DNA from: an uncultured Clostridia bacterium
GTDB lineage: Bacteria > Bacillota > Clostridia > TANB77 > CAG-508
Direction of reading: 5' to 3'
DNA length: 64,000 nucleotides
Assembly (NCBI GenBank): GCA_934167305.1
Contig: CAKPKQ010000003.1
Coordinates: 2,638 to 66,637 of the forward strand
Numbering within the stretch: position 1 is the stretch's first letter; every line of letters starts with the position of its first letter. A model generated the notes under the pieces. That model was not told where the DNA came from. It did not search any database and saw only the letters and a program-made list of their open reading frames with translations. Below are positions 2,614 through 64,000 of the stretch, piece by piece. The position numbers were made by a program, and so were the translations under genes.

Positions 2614-2979
2614 ATGGCAAAAATTGATGAATTATTAGAAACTATCGACACTTTAACAGTTGTTGAATTAGCAGAATTAGTAAAAGGAATTGAAGAAAAA
2701 TATGGAGTATCTGCAGCAGCAGTTGCAGCACCTGCAGCAGGAGCAACAGCTGGAGCAGCTGAAGAAAAATCTTCATTTAACGTAGTATTAAAAGAAGCTG
2801 GAGCAAACAAAATCCAAGTAATTAAAGTAGTTAGAGATGCTACAGGATTAGGATTAAAAGAAGCTAAAGATTTAGTTGATGGAGCTCCAAAAACAGTTAA
2901 AGAAAACGTAGCTAAAGCAGAAGCTGAAGAATTAAAAGCTAAATTTGAAGAAGTTGGCGCTACAGTAGAATTAGCATAG
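2614..2979 (+). CDS. rplL: 50S ribosomal protein L7/L12
   Basis: 121 aa. Ala-rich hinge [20 protein letters not shown]-terminal domain [19 protein letters not shown]. Confidence 0.97.
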
Positions 2980-3001
2980 TTTTAAACTAAATAAATAATA
3001 C

Positions 3002-3058
3002 AAGAGTACTAAATTGAAGTGAGTTCTTAAATTATTTCAATCAAAGTGCTCTTTTTTT
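3002..3058 (+). terminator. Putative terminator after rplL
   Basis: AAGAGTACT (3002-3010) pairs with AGTGCTCTT (3045-3053) with one mismatch and an inner ATTGAA/TTCAAT stem. Followed by a T-run. Confidence 0.5.
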
Positions 3059-3297
3059 ATTGTATAGAAAAAATTGGTAATATAATAAGAATAAATAACC
3101 TTAAATAGTAGAAGTAACTATGTGAATATTGTGCTATATTGTATAGATAAAATGTTAAATCAGGTATTTCTCACAAAAACTACTCATTGATTAATAATTT
3201 ATAATTGACTTTAATAAATATAAGTTATAAAATAGAAAAGTAAACATATCAATTATTATGCTTACATAGTAAAAACAAAAGGAGAGTAAATTAAATA

Positions 3298-4335
3298 ATG
3301 GTAATATTATTAGATGCTATGGGTGGAGATAATGCACCAGATGCAACAATAAAAGGAGCTGTAAGAGCTATAAATCAGATTGACGCTGAAATTCTATTAA
3401 TAGGAAATAAAGATATAATAAATAAAAAAGTAAAAGAATTATATAATAAAAATGATATATCAGAAATATCATCTAAACTAAAAATATATCATACTACAGA
3501 AACAATAGAAATGGAGGATACTCCAACAGTTGCAATTAAACACAAAAAAGATTCATCGATGGTTGTAGGTTTTAATCTATTAAAAGAAGGCAAAGGAGAT
3601 GTATTTATCTCAGCAGGTAATTCAGGTGCATTACTTACAGGAGCAACATTATTAGTTGGGAGAATAAAAGGTGTAGATAGACCAGCATTAGCAGGAATTT
3701 TACCAGCATATAAGAGTCGATTAGTTCTAATGGACTGTGGTGCAAATACAAATTGCAAACCAATTAACCTTTTACAGTTTGCTCAAATGGCAAGTATATA
3801 CTTAGAAACAACAATTGGTGTAAAAAATCCAAGAGTAGGGTTATTAAACATTGGAACTGAAGAAACAAAAGGCAATGAATTAATGAAAGAGTCATATAAA
3901 TTATTAAAAGAACAAAGCAAAGATCTTGGAGTTAATTTTATTGGAAATGTTGAAGGAAGAGATGCTTTTTCTGGAAATGTTGATATTGTTGTAACAGATG
4001 GATTTACAGGAAATAATTTTTTAAAAGCAGTTGAGGGATTAGGAAAATTTGTAAAAAGAACATTATCAGAAAGTTTAAAGAAAAATTTATTATCTAAAAT
4101 AGCAGCACTTCCAAGTATGCCAGCAATAAAAAGATTTGCAAAAAGTGTAGATTATAAAGAATATGGTGGGGCTTTATTCTTAGGAGTAAAAAAACCAGTA
4201 GTAAAAGCACATGGAAGTAGTGATGAAAAATCATTTGAATTTACCATAAAACAAGCTGAACAATTTGTAAAAAATCAAGCAGTTGAAAAGCTAAAGGAGC
4301 AATTTACAAAGGAAACAGCTGAAAAAAATAATTAA
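3298..4335 (+). CDS. plsX: Phosphate acyltransferase PlsX
   Basis: 345 aa. N-terminal LLDAMGGDNAP motif typical of PlsX. Followed by acpP. Confidence 0.92.
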   Translation: MVILLDAMGGDNAPDATIKGAVRAINQIDAEILLIGNKDIINKKVKELYNKNDISEISSKLKIYHTTETIEMEDTPTVAIKHKKDSSMVVGFNLLKEGKGDVFISAGNSGALLTGATLLVGRIKGVDRPALAGILPAYKSRLVLMDCGANTNCKPINLLQFAQMASIYLETTIGVKNPRVGLLNIGTEETKGNELMKESYKLLKEQSKDLGVNFIGNVEGRDAFSGNVDIVVTDGFTGNNFLKAVEGLGKFVKRTLSESLKKNLLSKIAALPSMPAIKRFAKSVDYKEYGGALFLGVKKPVVKAHGSSDEKSFEFTIKQAEQFVKNQAVEKLKEQFTKETAEKNN

Positions 4336-24216: not shown

Positions 24217-25485
24217 TTATGGTTGTTCTTGAAGAGTAACTGTTATATCTTTTTTGTTACCATTACGATAAACTTTAAGTTTAATTGTATCACCAATTTG
24301 TTTTTGACCTTTAATTTCATTTAATTCATTCATTGTTGTAATAGTTTTTCCATCAGCCTCAATAATAACGTCACCAACTTTTAAACCAGCTTTTTCTCCA
24401 GCTGAAAAATCTTCAACTGTTTTGATATATACACCAACAACCAAGTTATTAGCTTTAGCGGTTTTTTCATCTAAATCAATTCCGCCAATTCCAATATAAG
24501 GTCTTTTTACTTTACTATACTGAATAAGTTGTTCATAAATGCTCTTTGTTGAATTAATTGGAATAGCAAAACCAACACCTTCAACACCTGTACCAGAAAG
24601 CTTTAAAGTATTAACACCAATAACTTGTCCTTTACTATTTACTAAGGCACCACCACTGTTACCAGTATTTATTGCAGCATCAGTTTGAATAGTTGTATAT
24701 TTATTTCCATCATCATCTGAAACTTCTCTATTAACAGCACTAACAATACCAGCTGTTACACTATTATCCAATCCTAAAGGGCTACCAATAGCCATTACAA
24801 ACTCTCCAACTTGAACTGAGCTAGAATCACCAAGTTCTGCAACAGCCAAACCATCTTTATCAATTTTTATAACAGCCAAATCAGTTTGTGAATCAGTTCC
24901 AACAATAGTTCCTGTATATTCTGTATCATCATTATACAATTTTACAGTAACTTTATTAGCTTTTTCGATTTCATAAAAAGAACCAGAACTAGAGCCAGTA
25001 GAATTTACAACGTGATTGTTAGTTAAAATATAACCATCTTCACTTATAATAATTCCAGAGCCTTTAGCAGTTACAGTTCCAGTAGAACGATTAAAAATAG
25101 AATTAACCGAATATTCCACACTAATTGCAACAATAGATGGTTGTACCTTTCTAGCAACTCCAATAGCTGTATCTGAATATCCTTGAAGCGAAATAAGTTG
25201 TGTATTTACAGAAGTGGTATTTTCAGAAGATTTGTTATCATTTGTTACATTTGTAACAACTAATTTTTCTAAAAATGCCTGTTTGATACTAGGAACACTA
25301 ACACATGCACCAATAGTGATGGCAGCGCCAAGTATACCACACATAAAAGGTAGAACTACCACTTTACCAAAACCAGCACCTCCTGATTTCTTTTTCTTTT
25401 CTGAATTATTAAAAGCTCTATAATTTACCTCAGTCGTAGTTGGGTTTACGCTTTTAAATTCTTGATCATTATTTTCGTCATTCAT
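24217..25485 (-). CDS. htrA: HtrA/DegP-family serine protease with PDZ domain
   Basis: 422 aa. N-terminal TM. TNNHVV (His), GNSGGAL (Ser). C-terminal PDZ (GLKVGDVIIEADG). Confidence 0.9.
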   Translation of the reverse strand: MNDENNDQEFKSVNPTTTEVNYRAFNNSEKKKKSGGAGFGKVVVLPFMCGILGAAITIGACVSVPSIKQAFLEKLVVTNVTNDNKSSENTTSVNTQLISLQGYSDTAIGVARKVQPSIVAISVEYSVNSIFNRSTGTVTAKGSGIIISEDGYILTNNHVVNSTGSSSGSFYEIEKANKVTVKLYNDDTEYTGTIVGTDSQTDLAVIKIDKDGLAVAELGDSSSVQVGEFVMAIGSPLGLDNSVTAGIVSAVNREVSDDDGNKYTTIQTDAAINTGNSGGALVNSKGQVIGVNTLKLSGTGVEGVGFAIPINSTKSIYEQLIQYSKVKRPYIGIGGIDLDEKTAKANNLVVGVYIKTVEDFSAGEKAGLKVGDVIIEADGKTITTMNELNEIKGQKQIGDTIKLKVYRNGNKKDITVTLQEQP

Positions 25486-25617
25486 TGAAAATTACCTCCA
25501 AACTTATATGAATATATTTTATCTTAAAACATAATTATCATACAATACATTTGTGAAAAAAATGTGAAAAAATTGTATTTTTTATTTGGCAATAAGAGTT
25601 TATTTGTCAAAATACAT

Positions 25618-25645
25618 TTGCAATTTCATTAAAATAATGTATAAT
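25618..25645 (+). promoter_or_regulatory. Candidate rnc promoter (TTGCAA-16-TATAAT)
   Basis: -35 at 25618-25623 and -10 at 25640-25645. This places the 47-nt repeat in the rnc 5' UTR. Confidence 0.45.
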
Positions 25646-25674
25646 AAAAAAGTAAAAAGAAAATAGTAAGATAG

Positions 25675-25721
25675 TGTTAAGCAGTCTATGAAAAATTGTA
25701 GCGGAGCACAATGTGCTCCAT
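25675..25721 (+). repeat. 47-nt repeat copy 1 with GGAGCAC-AAT-GTGCTCC hairpin
   Basis: 42 of 47 nt identical to 35122-35168. Hairpin at 25703-25719. Confidence 0.85.
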
Positions 25722-25764
25722 AAAAATAAAACTATCTAAATAATAAAATGAAGGGAGTGAAAAA

Positions 25765-26478
25765 ATGGAAAGTTTAGAAAAAAGTATTGGTTATACATTT
25801 AAAAATAAGGAATTATTAAAAAAGGCTCTAACACACACATCTTATGCATATGAGCATCATGTAGAAAGCAATGAAAAGTTAGAGTTTTTAGGGGATAGTA
25901 TTTTAGAGTTTTTATCAAGCAAATATATATATAATAACTATCCAAAACTAAAAGAAGGAGAAATGACTAAAGTGAGAGCCGAAGTCGTATGCGAAGACAG
26001 TTTATACTTAGTTGCACAAAGACATCATTTTAGTGATTTCTTATACTTAGGAAAAAGCGAAGCAGTAAGTCATGGAGACGCTAAACCAGCTATATTAGCT
26101 GATAGTGTTGAAGCAGTTATAGCAGCAATATATTTTGATGGAGGCCTAGAAGAAGCTGAAAAATTTATTATAACAAATTTAGCAGAGGCAGTAAAACATT
26201 CTAGTGCAAATGTAGGAATGAAAGATCATAAAACGGTATTACAAGAAAAACTACAAGAAAATGGTAGTGTTCATATAAGCTATAAGGTAATAAAAACAAG
26301 TGGACCAGACCATGATAAAACATTTACAGTAGAAGTATATTGTGAAGATAAACCATTAGCTGTTGGAGAAGGAAAAACAAAAAAACAAGCGGAAATGAAA
26401 GCCGCAGAAAAAGCACTATGTCAGTTTGGGGACGTTTCTTTAACTGACAAAAGTGTCACTTCGGGGACAGATCTTTAA
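25765..26478 (+). CDS. rnc: Ribonuclease III
   Basis: 237 aa. Signature EKLEFLGDSILEF. C-terminal dsRBD (GPDHDKTFTVEV..GEGKTKKQAEMKAAEKAL). The last 19 codons lie in the palindromic repeat. Confidence 0.93.
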   Translation: MESLEKSIGYTFKNKELLKKALTHTSYAYEHHVESNEKLEFLGDSILEFLSSKYIYNNYPKLKEGEMTKVRAEVVCEDSLYLVAQRHHFSDFLYLGKSEAVSHGDAKPAILADSVEAVIAAIYFDGGLEEAEKFIITNLAEAVKHSSANVGMKDHKTVLQEKLQENGSVHISYKVIKTSGPDHDKTFTVEVYCEDKPLAVGEGKTKKQAEMKAAEKALCQFGDVSLTDKSVTSGTDL

Positions 26479-26556
26479 AGAAAAAGATGGATGTGAGGGA
26501 AGATGTGTCCCTCAACTGACAAAAATGTCAGTTAGAGAAACGTCCCCAAACTGACA
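26419..26556. repeat. Compound-palindrome element, copy A (138 bp)
   Basis: TGTCAGTTTGGGGACGTTTCTTTAACTGACA...TGTCAGTTAGAGAAACGTCCCCAAACTGACA. Homologous to 62025-62159 and 63762-63900. Confidence 0.9.
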
Positions 26557-26567
26557 AGGAGGAGAAT

Positions 26568-27638
26568 ATGAAGAAGGAGTATATTATACCAATTTTTGTT
26601 CCACATTTAGGTTGTCCTCATCAATGTACATTTTGCAATCAAAAGGAGATTAGTGGACAAACAAAACAGGTAACTGCAAAAGATGTAAAAGATACAATAG
26701 AGTTTTATTTGAAAAATTTTAAAGATGATTCTAAATATGTAGAAGTGGCTTTTTATGGTGGTAGTTTTACTGCTATTGAGGAGAATAAACAAAATGAATT
26801 ATTAGAAGCTGCCAATGAATTTATAAAAGATGGCAAAGTAAAAAGTATTAGAATTTCTACAAGACCGGATTATATTGACAAATCGATTTTAAAGAGATTA
26901 AAAAAATATCATGTTCAAACAATTGAATTAGGGGTTCAATCTACTAATGATTATATTCTTGCAAAATGTCAAAGAGGTCATACTTTTGAGGATGTTAAAA
27001 AAGCTTCGAAACTTATTAGATTTCATGGTTTTACATTAGGACATCAAATGATGATTGGATTACCTGAAAGTACAAAATTAGATGAGATTAATACAGCTAA
27101 AGAATTAATAAAATTGAAACCAAAAATTGTTAGAATTTACCCTGTACTTGTAATTAAAAATACCCCATTAGCTAAAGAGTATGAAACAGGGGATTACATA
27201 CCTTTAACAGTTGAGCAGGCTGTCGAGCGTTCTGAAGAAATAATGAAATTATTTAACAATGCTAAAATTGATGTTATAAGAATTGGACTTCAAAATACAG
27301 AGGAAATTACAGATCCAAAAGAAAAAAATAGTCAGGTAATTGCAGGTCCATATCATCCAGCTTTTAGACAACTTGTGGAATCTAGAATGTGGTATGATGA
27401 AATTGTACAAAAAATAAAGAAAATAAATACAAAGGTTATGCAAGTAACAATTAAAGCAAACCCGGAAAATGTGAATAATATTATAGGACATAAAAAAGAA
27501 AATATTTTAAAGTTAAAAGAATTTTATGATGTTGATGTGGTAATTGAGCCAGATGACAACATAAAAAAGGGAAAATTTGAAGTTATAATAGACAAAACCT
27601 ATGAAGATATTTTAGAAGAAATTAATAATAAAAAATAA
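26568..27638 (+). CDS. Radical SAM protein (ELP3-like)
   Basis: 356 aa. N-terminal CxxxCxxC cluster CPHQCTFC. AGGAGG RBS abuts the repeat. Confidence 0.8.
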   Translation: MKKEYIIPIFVPHLGCPHQCTFCNQKEISGQTKQVTAKDVKDTIEFYLKNFKDDSKYVEVAFYGGSFTAIEENKQNELLEAANEFIKDGKVKSIRISTRPDYIDKSILKRLKKYHVQTIELGVQSTNDYILAKCQRGHTFEDVKKASKLIRFHGFTLGHQMMIGLPESTKLDEINTAKELIKLKPKIVRIYPVLVIKNTPLAKEYETGDYIPLTVEQAVERSEEIMKLFNNAKIDVIRIGLQNTEEITDPKEKNSQVIAGPYHPAFRQLVESRMWYDEIVQKIKKINTKVMQVTIKANPENVNNIIGHKKENILKLKEFYDVDVVIEPDDNIKKGKFEVIIDKTYEDILEEINNKK

Positions 27639-60768: not shown

Positions 60769-62025
60769 ATGGAAAATGTAATAGGTTTAGTAATGGCAGC
60801 AGGAACAGATAACAGAATGAAATCTAAGAAATCAAAACTAGCACAAGAATTATATGGAAAGGCTGTTATAAAAAGAGTTGTTGACAGCATGAAAAAAGCT
60901 GGAATAGAAGAAGTTGCAGTTATTGTTGGAGACAACAAAGAAGAGATAGAAGGCATTTTAAAAGATGAAGTAACATATTTAGAACAAAAAGGTTGCTTAG
61001 GAACAGGCCATGCAATAATGCAAGCAACAAGTTACTTAGAAAGTAAAAAAGGAAGAGTAGTAATTGCAAATGGAAACATACCATTAATTACACCAGAAAC
61101 CATTAAAGAATTGGTAGAAAAATCAGAAAAAGAAAATGAGGCAGTTACAATACTTACAGGAATTATAAGTGAACCAACAGGTTATGGAAGAGTTATTAGA
61201 GAGAATAATAGAATTACAGAAGTCATAGAAGAAAAAGAACTAACAGAAGCAGGAAAGAAAATATTAGAAGTAAATGCAGGAGTATACTGTTATGAAATTT
61301 CTGAATTAACAAAAATAATTGGAACATTAAGAAAAAACAGCATGGGACTATATTATTTAACAGATACTGTTAAAATGCTAGTTGCATCAGGAAAAAATGT
61401 TGGAGGAGTCTTAGTAGAAGACAACACAGAAATATTGAGTCTTAATACAAAACTTCAACTAGAAATGTTAACAAGAATTTTAAGAATAAAAATCAACACA
61501 ATGCATATGAACAATGGTGTAACAATAGAAGACATCAACACAACATATATATATGAAGATGTAGAAATTGGAATGGACACAGTAATTCATCCAAACACAA
61601 CAATCAAATCTGGAGTAGTAATAGGAGAAGACTGCAACATTGGACCAAATGCATATATTCGTGAAGGATGTAAACTAGCAGACAAAGTAAAAGTAGGAAG
61701 CTTTGTAGAAATTAAAAAAGCAATTATTGCAGAAGGCTCTAAAGTACCACACTTATCATATATGGGCGACTGTGAAATAGGAACAAAATGCAATATTGGA
61801 TGTGGAACAATCACATGTAATTACGACGGAAAAAATAAACACAAAACTAAAATTGGAGATAACTGCTTCATAGGCTCAAATGTAAACTTAGTAGCACCAG
61901 TAACATTAGGCGACCATGTATTAGTAGCAGCAGGATCAACAATCACACAAGATGTACCATCAGAAGCACTAAGCATAGCAAGAGAAAGACAAACAAACAA
62001 AGAAGAATGGAACAAAAATAAATAA
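60769..62025 (+). CDS. glmU: GlmU-like nucleotidyltransferase / left-handed beta-helix acetyltransferase (atypical N-terminal motif)
   Basis: 418 aa. N-terminal MAAGTDNRMKS (canonical is LAAGKGTRM). C-terminal hexapeptide repeats. Confidence 0.75.
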   Translation: MENVIGLVMAAGTDNRMKSKKSKLAQELYGKAVIKRVVDSMKKAGIEEVAVIVGDNKEEIEGILKDEVTYLEQKGCLGTGHAIMQATSYLESKKGRVVIANGNIPLITPETIKELVEKSEKENEAVTILTGIISEPTGYGRVIRENNRITEVIEEKELTEAGKKILEVNAGVYCYEISELTKIIGTLRKNSMGLYYLTDTVKMLVASGKNVGGVLVEDNTEILSLNTKLQLEMLTRILRIKINTMHMNNGVTIEDINTTYIYEDVEIGMDTVIHPNTTIKSGVVIGEDCNIGPNAYIREGCKLADKVKVGSFVEIKKAIIAEGSKVPHLSYMGDCEIGTKCNIGCGTITCNYDGKNKHKTKIGDNCFIGSNVNLVAPVTLGDHVLVAAGSTITQDVPSEALSIARERQTNKEEWNKNK

Positions 62026-62159
62026 TGTCAGTTTGGGGACGTTTCTTTAACTGACAAAAATGTCACTTAGGGGACAGATCTTAAAAAGTTAAAACACTTA
62101 AAAGATCTGTCCCCCAACTGTCAAAAGCGTCAGTTAAAGAAACGTCCCCAAACTGACAT
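62025..62159. repeat. Compound-palindrome element, copy B (135 bp)
   Basis: Shares its first base with the glmU-like TAA and its last base with the stop of the convergent holin-like gene. Confidence 0.92.
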
Positions 62160-62530
62160 TATTGTTGGTCGCCAGGTATAAAGTAATCTACAACACCGTA
62201 AACTATTGCGCCAACTATTGCAGCCATCCAAGAAACTGTATACCCTGCAACAAAATATTGAGTTACATACAATACAACTGCAGATAGAACAAAACCGACA
62301 AAACCTTTACCAAAAGAACTAGCATGTAATCCAGTAAACTTAGTAATTAAGTAATCAATAACAGTAAGAACGATTGCAGCCATAGCTAAAGCCCAAAAGT
62401 TACTTATTCTAAATCCAGGTGTAAAAAATGCTGTAATACCAAGAACAATTGCAGCTGTGACCAATCTACCAATAATTTGCCATGCTGTACTTTTAGTATT
62501 AGATTGTGTATTAGTATTTGCGTTTGACAT
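62159..62530 (-). CDS. Phage-holin-4_2 (DUF360)-family small membrane protein
   Basis: 123 aa. Four TMs with the GRLVTAAIVLGITAFFTPGF pattern. Confidence 0.7.
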   Translation of the reverse strand: MSNANTNTQSNTKSTAWQIIGRLVTAAIVLGITAFFTPGFRISNFWALAMAAIVLTVIDYLITKFTGLHASSFGKGFVGFVLSAVVLYVTQYFVAGYTVSWMAAIVGAIVYGVVDYFIPGDQQ

Positions 62531-63372: not shown

Positions 63373-63762
63373 ATGTATAAAGAATTAATTATTATAATTA
63401 TAATAATAGCATTGGTTATAGTAGGAAATATTATAACCCAAAATAATACAAATAAATCGGTAGAGGCTATAAATGATGAACTCAAAATATTCAGAGAGGA
63501 AATTTTAAAACAAACTATCAGCAAAACAGAAATAGAAGAACATATAAAAAAAATAAATAATACATGGGAAGAAAAGTTTGAGAAATTAGCATATTATATT
63601 GAACATGATGAATTAGAAAAAGCAAGTTCAGAACTAACAAAATTAAAAGCAGATGTTGAAACAGAAAACTATGACTTTGCAATAGAAAATTTAGACAACT
63701 GTGTATTTATATTAGAACACATAAAAGACAAATCAGCCTTAAAAATAGTAAACATATTTTAA
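63373..63762 (+). CDS. DUF4363-like protein
   Basis: 129 aa with an N-terminal TM. Usual partner downstream of DUF421. Confidence 0.65.
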   Translation: MYKELIIIIIIIALVIVGNIITQNNTNKSVEAINDELKIFREEILKQTISKTEIEEHIKKINNTWEEKFEKLAYYIEHDELEKASSELTKLKADVETENYDFAIENLDNCVFILEHIKDKSALKIVNIF

Positions 63763-63900
63763 TGTCAGTTCGGGGACGTTTCTTTAACTGACAAAAATGT
63801 CACTTGGGGGACACATCTTAAAAATATAAATTAAAAAAATGAAAGATGTGTCCCCTGACTGACAAAAATGTCAGTTAAAGAAACGTCCCCGAACTGACAT
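63762..63900. repeat. Compound-palindrome element, copy C (139 bp)
   Basis: Starts on the last A of the DUF4363 TAA. Its right arm supplies the last ~8 codons and the stop of dapB. Confidence 0.92.
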
Positions 63901-64000
63901 AATAACCTGCGGGTTGGGATACTATGAACTCTGCTGCTTTTAATGCTCCTTCAGCAAAGATACTACGAGAATATGCAGTGTGCTTTACTTCAAAGCTTTC
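63875..64000 (-). CDS. dapB: 4-hydroxy-tetrahydrodipicolinate reductase DapB, C-terminal fragment (5' end outside window)
   Basis: Not in the track. The minus strand reads ESFEVKHTAYSRSIFAEGALKAAEFIVSQPAGYYVSSGTFL*. HxAxSRxxFAxGALxAA is the DapB C-terminal signature. Confidence 0.7.
   Translation of the reverse strand, partial: ESFEVKHTAYSRSIFAEGALKAAEFIVSQPAGYYVSSGTFL

Follow-up and report, generated by a model that had tools for sequence, protein, structure and literature searches.

Repetitive extragenic palindromic sequences (REPs) are known from Pseudomonas and Enterobacteria as dispersed palindromic units that occur both as singlets and as inverted doublets (REPINs) forming long hairpins, in company with REP-associated tyrosine transposases (RAYTs) (PMC3116915, PMC5581495; structure 4ER8). 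RAYTs have also been noted in Clostridia, with high-copy repeats tied chiefly to two RAYT groups in the Gammaproteobacteria (PMC5581495). Here we describe a repeat family of likewise dispersed singlets and inverted doublets, found in a 64,000-nt stretch of DNA from an uncultured human-gut Clostridia bacterium (contig CAKPKQ010000003.1; the whole stretch is called the window below, and its G+C content is 28.4%), one copy of which, copy A, spans the 3' end of rnc, the gene for RNase III, together with the entire spacer between rnc and the following gene, which encodes a radical-SAM protein. The family appears to be a hitherto undescribed REP/REPIN-RAYT-type system of this lineage, an assignment made because of its inverted doublets, the Y1 transposase found between two of its arms, the best sequence and structure matches of that transposase, which are to RAYTs, and the repeat variants that are each species' own. 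We put the probability at roughly 80% that copy A is a REPIN-type doublet of a RAYT-associated repeat and that its position at rnc is incidental, rather than an evolved circuit.

The resemblance to REPINs and RAYTs extends to the lack of target duplications, to the placing of a Y1/HUH transposase between inverted units, to the conserved chromosomal locus of the transposase in related species and to the species-specificity of the repeat variant. The differences are that the host belongs to an uncultured, low-GC gut Clostridia lineage, in which we know of no described high-copy REPIN-RAYT system; that the unit is ~57 nt long and built from 35-nt modules (TGTCAGTT-N15-AACTGACA plus linker), with no GTAG-type 5' motif; that the arms of doublets are consistently of two types; that the transposase, of 262 aa, carries a C-terminal helical/helix-turn-helix (HTH) extension; and that roughly one copy in three extends over the final codons of a gene, whereas REPINs are strictly extragenic. 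The REP sequences and bacterial interspersed mosaic elements (BIMEs) of E. coli, the effects of which on mRNA were reported by Newbury et al. in 1987 and by Liang, Rudd and Deutscher in 2015, are likewise found as hairpins at or just past stop codons, within operons and between convergent genes; their stems measure ~12-15 bp and lie outside the open reading frame (ORF), whereas here the helix is ~51 bp and an ORF runs through one whole arm.

The Correia elements of Neisseria are also ~100-150-nt palindromic repeats inside transcripts, some copies of which alter coding ends, and their hairpin ends in mRNA are bound and cleaved, or protected, by RNase III, with changes in the expression of neighbouring genes (PMC2649163). 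They differ in having a TA target duplication, in being regarded as miniature inverted-repeat transposable elements (MITEs) of a DDE-type element and in being able to create promoters and bind IHF (PMC2649163); we saw nothing of this kind here. RNase III is further known to regulate its own synthesis through double-stranded structures in its own mRNA, in the 5' untranslated region (UTR) in E. coli (rncO), within the rnc coding sequence in S. aureus and also in S. coelicolor (absB) (PMC3867540, PMC3386247). A cut in the hairpin at rnc would similarly lower synthesis; the structure here, which is predicted from sequence alone, differs in lying at the extreme 3' end and in being, by our reading, a recent mobile-repeat insertion that is absent from related species.

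Copy A and the 3' end of rnc

The initial annotation of the window had described a palindrome that starts at codon 219 of rnc (TGT, beginning at 26419), supplies the last 19 codons and the TAA stop codon of the gene, ends flush with the ribosome-binding site of the radical-SAM gene and would give the rnc mRNA a long double-stranded segment. Our analysis agrees on each of these points, and the coordinates hold.

25765..26478, + strand: rnc (RNase III, 237 aa); residues 1-218 native, residues 219-237 and the stop codon from copy A
26419..26556, + strand: copy A, a REPIN-like doublet; a 138-nt palindrome of two inverted ~57-nt REP arms with a 24-nt centre
26419..26475, + strand: left arm of copy A, of the 'A-linker' type, read as rnc codons 219-237
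26419-26449, 26450-26453 and 26454-26475, + strand: outer module (TGTCAGTT-N15-AACTGACA), linker AAAG and inner module of the left arm
26476..26499, + strand: central loop of copy A, the first triplet of which, TAA (26476-26478), is the rnc stop codon
26500..26556, + strand: right arm of copy A, the reverse complement of a 'T-linker' arm
26500-26521, 26522-26525 and 26526-26556, + strand: inner module, linker AAAA and outer module of the right arm
26557..26570, + strand: Shine–Dalgarno sequence AGGAGG (26557-26562) and ATG (26568) of the radical-SAM gene (26568-27638)

Pfam places RNase III domains in the rnc product, with the double-stranded RNA-binding domain (dsRBD) at residues 156-219. The two 57-nt arms form an inverted repeat (26419-26475 / 26500-26556) that is 84% complementary, and the right end of the copy (...CCCCAAACTGACA, 26556) adjoins AGGAGG directly, this motif starting one base past copy A and the ATG following five bases past it. 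The RNA is predicted to fold into a 31-bp outer helix (21 Watson–Crick pairs, one G.U pair and 9 more pairs), a 4x4 internal loop and ~20 further pairs, well in excess of the helix length needed for cleavage by bacterial RNase III. The minimum free energy of this fold is -79.3 kcal/mol, compared with -32 ± 3.9 kcal/mol in dinucleotide shuffles (z = -12.3), and none of 200 shuffles was equally stable. The G.U pair arises from the G at 26535 in the right arm, where other strains have A, and when the flanks are included in the fold the pairing reaches two bases into the Shine–Dalgarno sequence. The copy had also been called chimeric, its left inner arm resembling that of copy B and its right inner arm that of copy C (both described below). 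The likenesses themselves are real, the left arm having ACAGATCT as in B and the right arm AGATGTGT as in C, but they produce only one G.G mismatch in the stem, and another locus (L023) has the same combination.

Rfam gave no match in the window at the gathering threshold, and a permissive scan of 26415-26560 returned only microRNA (miRNA)-precursor models from plants and animals, at 26-34 bits against thresholds of 104-211 (one of these matches to copy A, for example, scored 33.6 bits against a gathering score of 139.7). These sub-threshold matches reflect the generic shape of a long hairpin, and on these results we rejected a known RNA family as the identity of copy A. A promoter or an intrinsic terminator within the copy was likewise rejected, neither having been detected: a scan of 25400-27000 found no intrinsic terminator, and the hairpin is followed by AGGAGGAGAAUAUG, with no U-tract in the sense strand. 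A promoter-like sequence, TTTGCA-17-TATAAT (25617-25645), lies upstream of rnc, and the 5'-UTR of the gene contains a short hairpin, GGAGCAC-AAT-GTGCTCC (25703-25719), which is below the length of an RNase III substrate.

A dispersed repeat family

The repeat is present far beyond chance expectation in the window, because its 16-mer end motif occurs 12 times, against 0.05 expected; these occurrences make up three elements, namely copy A and the two copies B and C, the last of which also overlaps the end of a gene.

62026..62158, + strand: copy B, a doublet occupying precisely the interval from the TAA (62023-62025) of a GlmU-like gene to the stop codon (62159-62161) of a convergent Phage_holin_4_2-family gene
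63763..63899, + strand: copy C, a doublet that begins right after the TAA (63760-63762) of a DUF4363 gene
63875..64000, - strand: 3' end of a dapB-like gene, which runs into copy C; its last 7 codons (VSSGTFL) and its stop codon (63875-63877) are element-encoded

An exact 22-mer from the arm matched 20 human-gut metagenome contigs, several of which are the window loci as found in other samples. After merging the same locus across samples there were 16 further independent sites in ~140 kb of contigs, and hence at least 19 sites in all, a collection that is biased to intact units by its ascertainment with an exact 22-mer. In 185,579 representative genomes the 22-mer had a single match, on a 65%-GC Pirellulales contig, with ~0.3 matches expected by chance; we read this match as a chance one, and the exact variant, like the window's own genome, is accordingly absent from the representative-genome set. 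We found no match to the repeat by blastn in plasmid and phage collections, and none on a viral contig, and an origin from a phage or plasmid was rejected accordingly. A literature search for the repeat sequence found no paper.

The basic unit is an arm of ~57 nt, composed of an outer module (TGTCAGTT-yGGGGACGTTTCTTT-AACTGACA), a 4-nt linker of A or T and an inner module (TGTCAsTy-nGGGGACAsATCTT). Arms are found solo, paired in inverted orientation around a centre of 20-24 nt, as in copies A, B and C, or combined into longer composites (L024 and L031). Each of six aligned doublets, and also the pair of arms around the transposase gene, consists of one 'A-linker' and one 'T-linker' arm; solo arms are nearly all T-type, and T-type arms have an 8-bp stem followed by TTTTT. 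No consistent target-site duplication was found at the flanks of any of the doublets, nor by comparison with the empty orthologous sites of copies B and C. There is no conserved GTAG next to the palindrome, the ends being TGTCAGTT and AACTGACA, which, since GTAG is lineage-specific, argues for a different sub-family and not against membership of the REP class. An integron attC site was also considered, given that an imperfect palindrome follows stop codons and that AAC/GTT motifs are present, and was rejected, as the copies are scattered among housekeeping genes with no cassette array.

Among the composites, L031:5909-6312 has two inverted arm clusters around the gene for a 58-aa DUF6774 mini-protein, in place of a short spacer, and L024 has a three-module arm; the modules can therefore be iterated, as in BIME-like clusters.

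A RAYT-like transposase between inverted arms

At one locus (L027), inverted arms at 2641-2697 and 3575-3630 lie on either side of a 262-aa ORF, 2699-3484(-), the product of which scores 52.8 bits with the Pfam family Y1_Tnp (PF01797; cut-off 23). Among NCBIfam models the best match is to NF047646, 'REP-associated tyrosine transposase', with a score of 67.1 bits that is under the 80-bit equivalog cut-off of the model, and the IS200 model scores 28.8; the protein has the HUH (NHIHML) and YIHFNP motifs. A phmmer search against PDB sequences gave no match. An AlphaFold model made from 28 homologues had a predicted local distance difference test (pLDDT) score of 85.9, and its top Foldseek match was 4ER8, the E. 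coli RAYT with a REP hairpin (E 3e-7; template modelling (TM) score on the target 0.71), with IS608, ISDra2 and IS200 ranking lower. Read on the coding strand, the locus consists of an A-type arm, a promoter region, the gene and a reverse-complement T-type arm, and is, to judge from this layout, a doublet with the gene as its centre.

L027:2641-3630: RAYT-like transposase locus, enclosed by one A-type and one T-type arm of the family
L043:2924-4169: RAYT-like transposase locus, flanked by its own repeat variant
L045:5481-6854: RAYT-like transposase locus, flanked by its own repeat variant

A homologue with 65% identity, from another species, occupies the same slot between GH15 and radA genes and is bordered by a form of the repeat particular to that species (TGTCAGTTTTGGGGACGTTCCTTCAACTGACA...), and a 59% homologue at a different locus lies between small doublets of the form TGTCAGTTTrGGGAC...GTCCCCAAACTGACA. 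The GH15-transposase-radA synteny is common to two species, and the outer end of the repeat abuts the Shine–Dalgarno sequence of radA (or dnaE). By tblastn, there is one transposase locus among the analysed DNA of the species, and none in the window. The ~260-aa architecture is itself common in metagenomic Clostridia (663 clusters at E ≤ 1e-30). The genes found enclosed by arms are only the Y1 transposase and the DUF6774 mini-protein. Many of the RAYT-like protein homologues lie on contigs of ~1 kb, as would be expected if the flanking repeats break metagenome assemblies.

The rnc junction in related species and among strains

Orthologous loci in related species have 81-86% nucleotide identity to the window, and rnc and the radical-SAM gene are neighbours on the same strand in all the relatives compared. 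The rnc orthologues stop 2-9 residues past ...AEKAL, without the 19-residue tail, in agreement with an element-encoded end of the gene in the window; the contrary case raised by the initial annotation, of orthologues with the same tail and no palindrome, was not found among those compared. In 'Clostridium sp. CAG:567'-like genomes (L011), rnc ends ...KALLQIEKNTKE* and is followed by 49 nt, and in the more distant relatives L033 and L034 it ends ...KALEDLK* or ...KALQKIK*, followed by a plain AT-rich spacer of 58-61 nt; a long hairpin at the rnc site is absent in all three. Set beside these loci, copy A has evidently taken the place of ~4 native codons, the stop codon and a spacer of ~60 nt. 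RNase III probably tolerates such a replacement of its tail, because orthologues differ freely in the residues past the dsRBD.

In one related species (L002-L007) the rnc site carries a derivative of 51 nt, TGTCAGTT-N15-AACTGACA-AAAG-TATCAGTT-AACTGACA (L002:3655-3705), which gives the protein a CQLEDV* tail and has only a weak fold (-13.9 kcal/mol, z -1.4). This species is no closer to the window than the element-free L011, the species being about equidistant, and the 15-nt interior of its module (with the preceding TT, TTAGAAGATGTTTGAA) is closely similar to the native rnc tail of L033 (TTAGAAGATTTGAAATAG). The 51-nt version may have arisen by decay of an element, by a separate insertion or as a hybrid.

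Within the species, the insertion at rnc is fixed, because the 237-aa RNase III with the element-derived tail is found on more than 130 contigs. Nothing indicates, however, that the helix of this copy is under protection. In strain L036 the right outer module has been deleted between AACTGACA direct repeats, with loss of the 31-bp helix, and the remaining fold is irregular (-37 kcal/mol); L037 (ACT>AAT) and L038 (TGT>TTT) have single-base changes in the left arm without a matching change in the right arm, and no compensatory change was seen at the rnc copy across strains. In six independent doublets 96.6% of the stem cells are paired, but pairing and covariation across them were not above those of shuffles, because the copies are too similar, and covariation was dropped as a sign of a maintained RNA structure. 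At three copies per 64 kb, or about one per 21 kb, it should not be rare for any one gene to have a copy as its neighbour, and an occurrence next to rnc would therefore not be improbable by chance.

Sites occupied by the elements

Genes end inside an element at 6 of the 19 sites, those of rnc and the dapB-like gene included, and element-derived tails such as VSLGTFL* and SFRGRFFN* recur. Two of the three frames that enter an arm meet a stop codon within nine codons; rnc is read in the third, which stays open. The product of the dapB-like gene, which runs off the end of the window, terminates in GYY followed by VSSGTFL*, compared with GYYTNFQ* or GYYNNI* in relatives.

Where copies B and C lie, the convergent genes of relatives are separated by ordinary GC-stem/T-run hairpins, or have abutting stop codons: site B has a bidirectional terminator-like hairpin of 36-51 nt (AAAAGGGCTTTTGCAAA/TTTGCAAAAGTCCTTTT; L039:2873-2923, L041:2876-2911), and site C a short hairpin or abutting stops. 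The replacement by copy B is flush to both stop codons, and the L039 spacer ends in TGACA, like the element. At seven independent sites in the species the outer end of the repeat lies 0-4 nt from a Shine–Dalgarno sequence, and in two other species the copies at radA and dnaE are placed in the same way. Flush replacement of this kind, without target duplication, hints at a hairpin-for-hairpin mode of insertion, outside the known 'peel-and-paste' transposition of Y1 enzymes. In this compact genome the repeats thus remodel the C-termini of proteins, as well as stop codons, terminators and the stretch just upstream of ribosome-binding sites; the repeat probably also breaks metagenome assemblies, and it can mislead gene callers at 3' ends.

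Origin of the hairpin and its possible effects on the RNA

We propose that a chromosomal REP-associated tyrosine (Y1/HUH) transposase is the most likely agent of the family's movement, which would take place in the form of single-stranded DNA hairpins, and that in this lineage one copy came to occupy the junction of rnc and the radical-SAM gene. The hairpin would then be present at rnc because a mobile repeat landed there, as at many genes, which weakens the story of a self-targeting RNase III mRNA. Bacterial RNase III cuts RNA double helices about two turns long. Once transcribed, copy A would form a hairpin of ~51 bp, with a translated left arm and the stop codon at its apex, and, because the left arm is translated, this hairpin should be present only while no ribosome covers codons 219-237. 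When formed, it would be a good candidate substrate for RNase III, and a cut in the outer helix would give a non-stop rnc mRNA and a downstream RNA with a 5'-monophosphate, lowering both products. Such negative feedback would have arisen by accident, as a by-product of the landing site of a selfish or domesticated repeat, rather than being the reason for the element's presence. That some cleavage of the hairpin by RNase III takes place in vivo we judge to have about even odds, and RNase III-independent effects (a barrier to exonucleases, slowing of ribosomes, helix-dependent access to the Shine–Dalgarno sequence) seem equally possible. If RNase III does cut such hairpins, the rnc copy would be a simple natural system for repeat-made feedback on an RNase.

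The initial annotation had gone further and inferred a 3'-end autoregulatory loop, in which RNase III removes the stop codon and 3' end of its own message and uncouples or unmasks the downstream cistron; as a dedicated device, the hairpin would be a selected operator that sets the level of the enzyme. A near-perfect outer helix of 31 bp (~51 pairs overall), a stop codon at the apex of the hairpin and an arrangement fixed on more than 130 contigs of the species are all compatible with such an operator, as are the widespread occurrence of RNase III autoregulation, at sites that vary by species (PMC3386247, PMC3867540), and the proof from Neisseria that repeat hairpins in mRNA are RNase III substrates (PMC2649163). 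We nevertheless think it unlikely, and the idea of a dedicated device is not supported: the same element lies at many unrelated genes, and the dapB-like gene in the window also ends in one; related species keep no long hairpin at the rnc site; the outer helix has gone from L036, and the changes in L037 and L038 are uncompensated; and the density of copies would make one by rnc no improbable event. A co-option of the REPIN at rnc, with the hairpins of the family, placed as they are within or flush to the ends and ribosome-binding sites of many genes, forming an RNase III-sensitive regulon and the rnc copy tying the level of the enzyme to the load, is to our minds distinctly unlikely; if true, it would amount to a 3'-end, stop-codon-removing feedback made by a mobile repeat. 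It is a reasonable, though less expected, possibility that the main effect on the RNA does not involve RNase III, and that the hairpin blocks 3'-5' exonucleases, stabilising the rnc segment, and/or slows ribosomes, which have to melt 51 bp before the stop codon; it might also tie translation of the radical-SAM gene to the opening, by ribosomes, of the helix adjoining its Shine–Dalgarno sequence. The stop codon does lie within the structure, the Shine–Dalgarno sequence starts at the next base and has two of its bases paired in the fold, and many copies in this and related species are 0-4 nt from such a sequence. REP sequences in E. coli are reported, in the work named above, to stabilise upstream mRNA and, when within ~15 nt of a stop codon, to depress translation through ribosome stalling and transfer-messenger RNA (tmRNA). 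On the other hand, the DNA does not tell such effects from RNase III cleavage, the two are not exclusive, and the solo arms near Shine–Dalgarno sequences cannot make a long helix.

Other origins and functions of the element have less in their favour. A conventional MITE, that is, a deletion derivative of a DDE-transposase insertion sequence (IS) whose terminal inverted repeats are the sites of its cut-and-paste movement, a mechanism proposed for the Correia elements, would account for the long terminal inverted repeats ending TG...CA, the repeated sub-terminal motifs and the typical size of ~135 nt, but it is highly improbable given that no doublet has a target-site duplication, that solo arms are abundant, that the arm-enclosed transposase is of the Y1/HUH and not the DDE type, and that plasmid and phage collections are without a match. 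An IS21/Tn7-like MITE in particular, suggested by the TG...CA ends and the sub-terminal motifs, was rejected for the lack of target duplications and because the enclosed gene is a Y1 transposase. That the element is a transcription terminator or attenuator, taking over the role of native intergenic hairpins, is very unlikely: the sense strand of copy A has no U-tract after the hairpin, the terminator scan of this region was empty, every relative has rnc and the radical-SAM gene side by side on one strand, and copies are found in both orientations inside strings of genes. Such a role is suggested by elements B and C, which occupy the very positions of the GC-stem/T-run hairpins that separate convergent genes in relatives, and by the stem and T-run of the T-type arms.

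Our preferred explanation, an incidentally placed REPIN-type doublet of a RAYT-associated repeat, also has evidence to contend with. The flush replacement of spacers up to stop codons and Shine–Dalgarno sequences is explained by no described transposition mechanism, and the mobility of the repeat is only inferred, because no pair of filled and empty sites was found within one species. The transposase falls short of the equivalog cut-off of the RAYT model and has a C-terminal helical/HTH extension of ~110 aa that is not in the E. coli RAYT. The contigs L013-L032 are taken to be from the species of the window on the strength of shared loci and exact repeat matches, and the repeat counts cover the 64-kb window and ~140 kb of metagenome contigs. 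Fixation in more than 130 assemblies would be expected from a beneficial autoregulatory role as well.

Further sites of the repeat

On one side of the doublet at L014:1400-1611 is an apparent terminator of a T-box leader (GGTGGTACCGTGAG...CCTCGCCC-loop-GGGCGAGGATTTTT), on the other the Shine–Dalgarno sequence of an 879-aa gene, which would put the repeat inside a riboswitch-controlled leader. A solo arm at L020:12487-12560 has its inner end directly against the 3' end of an apparent tRNA gene on the opposite strand (tggcggagcaggtgggattcgaaccc).

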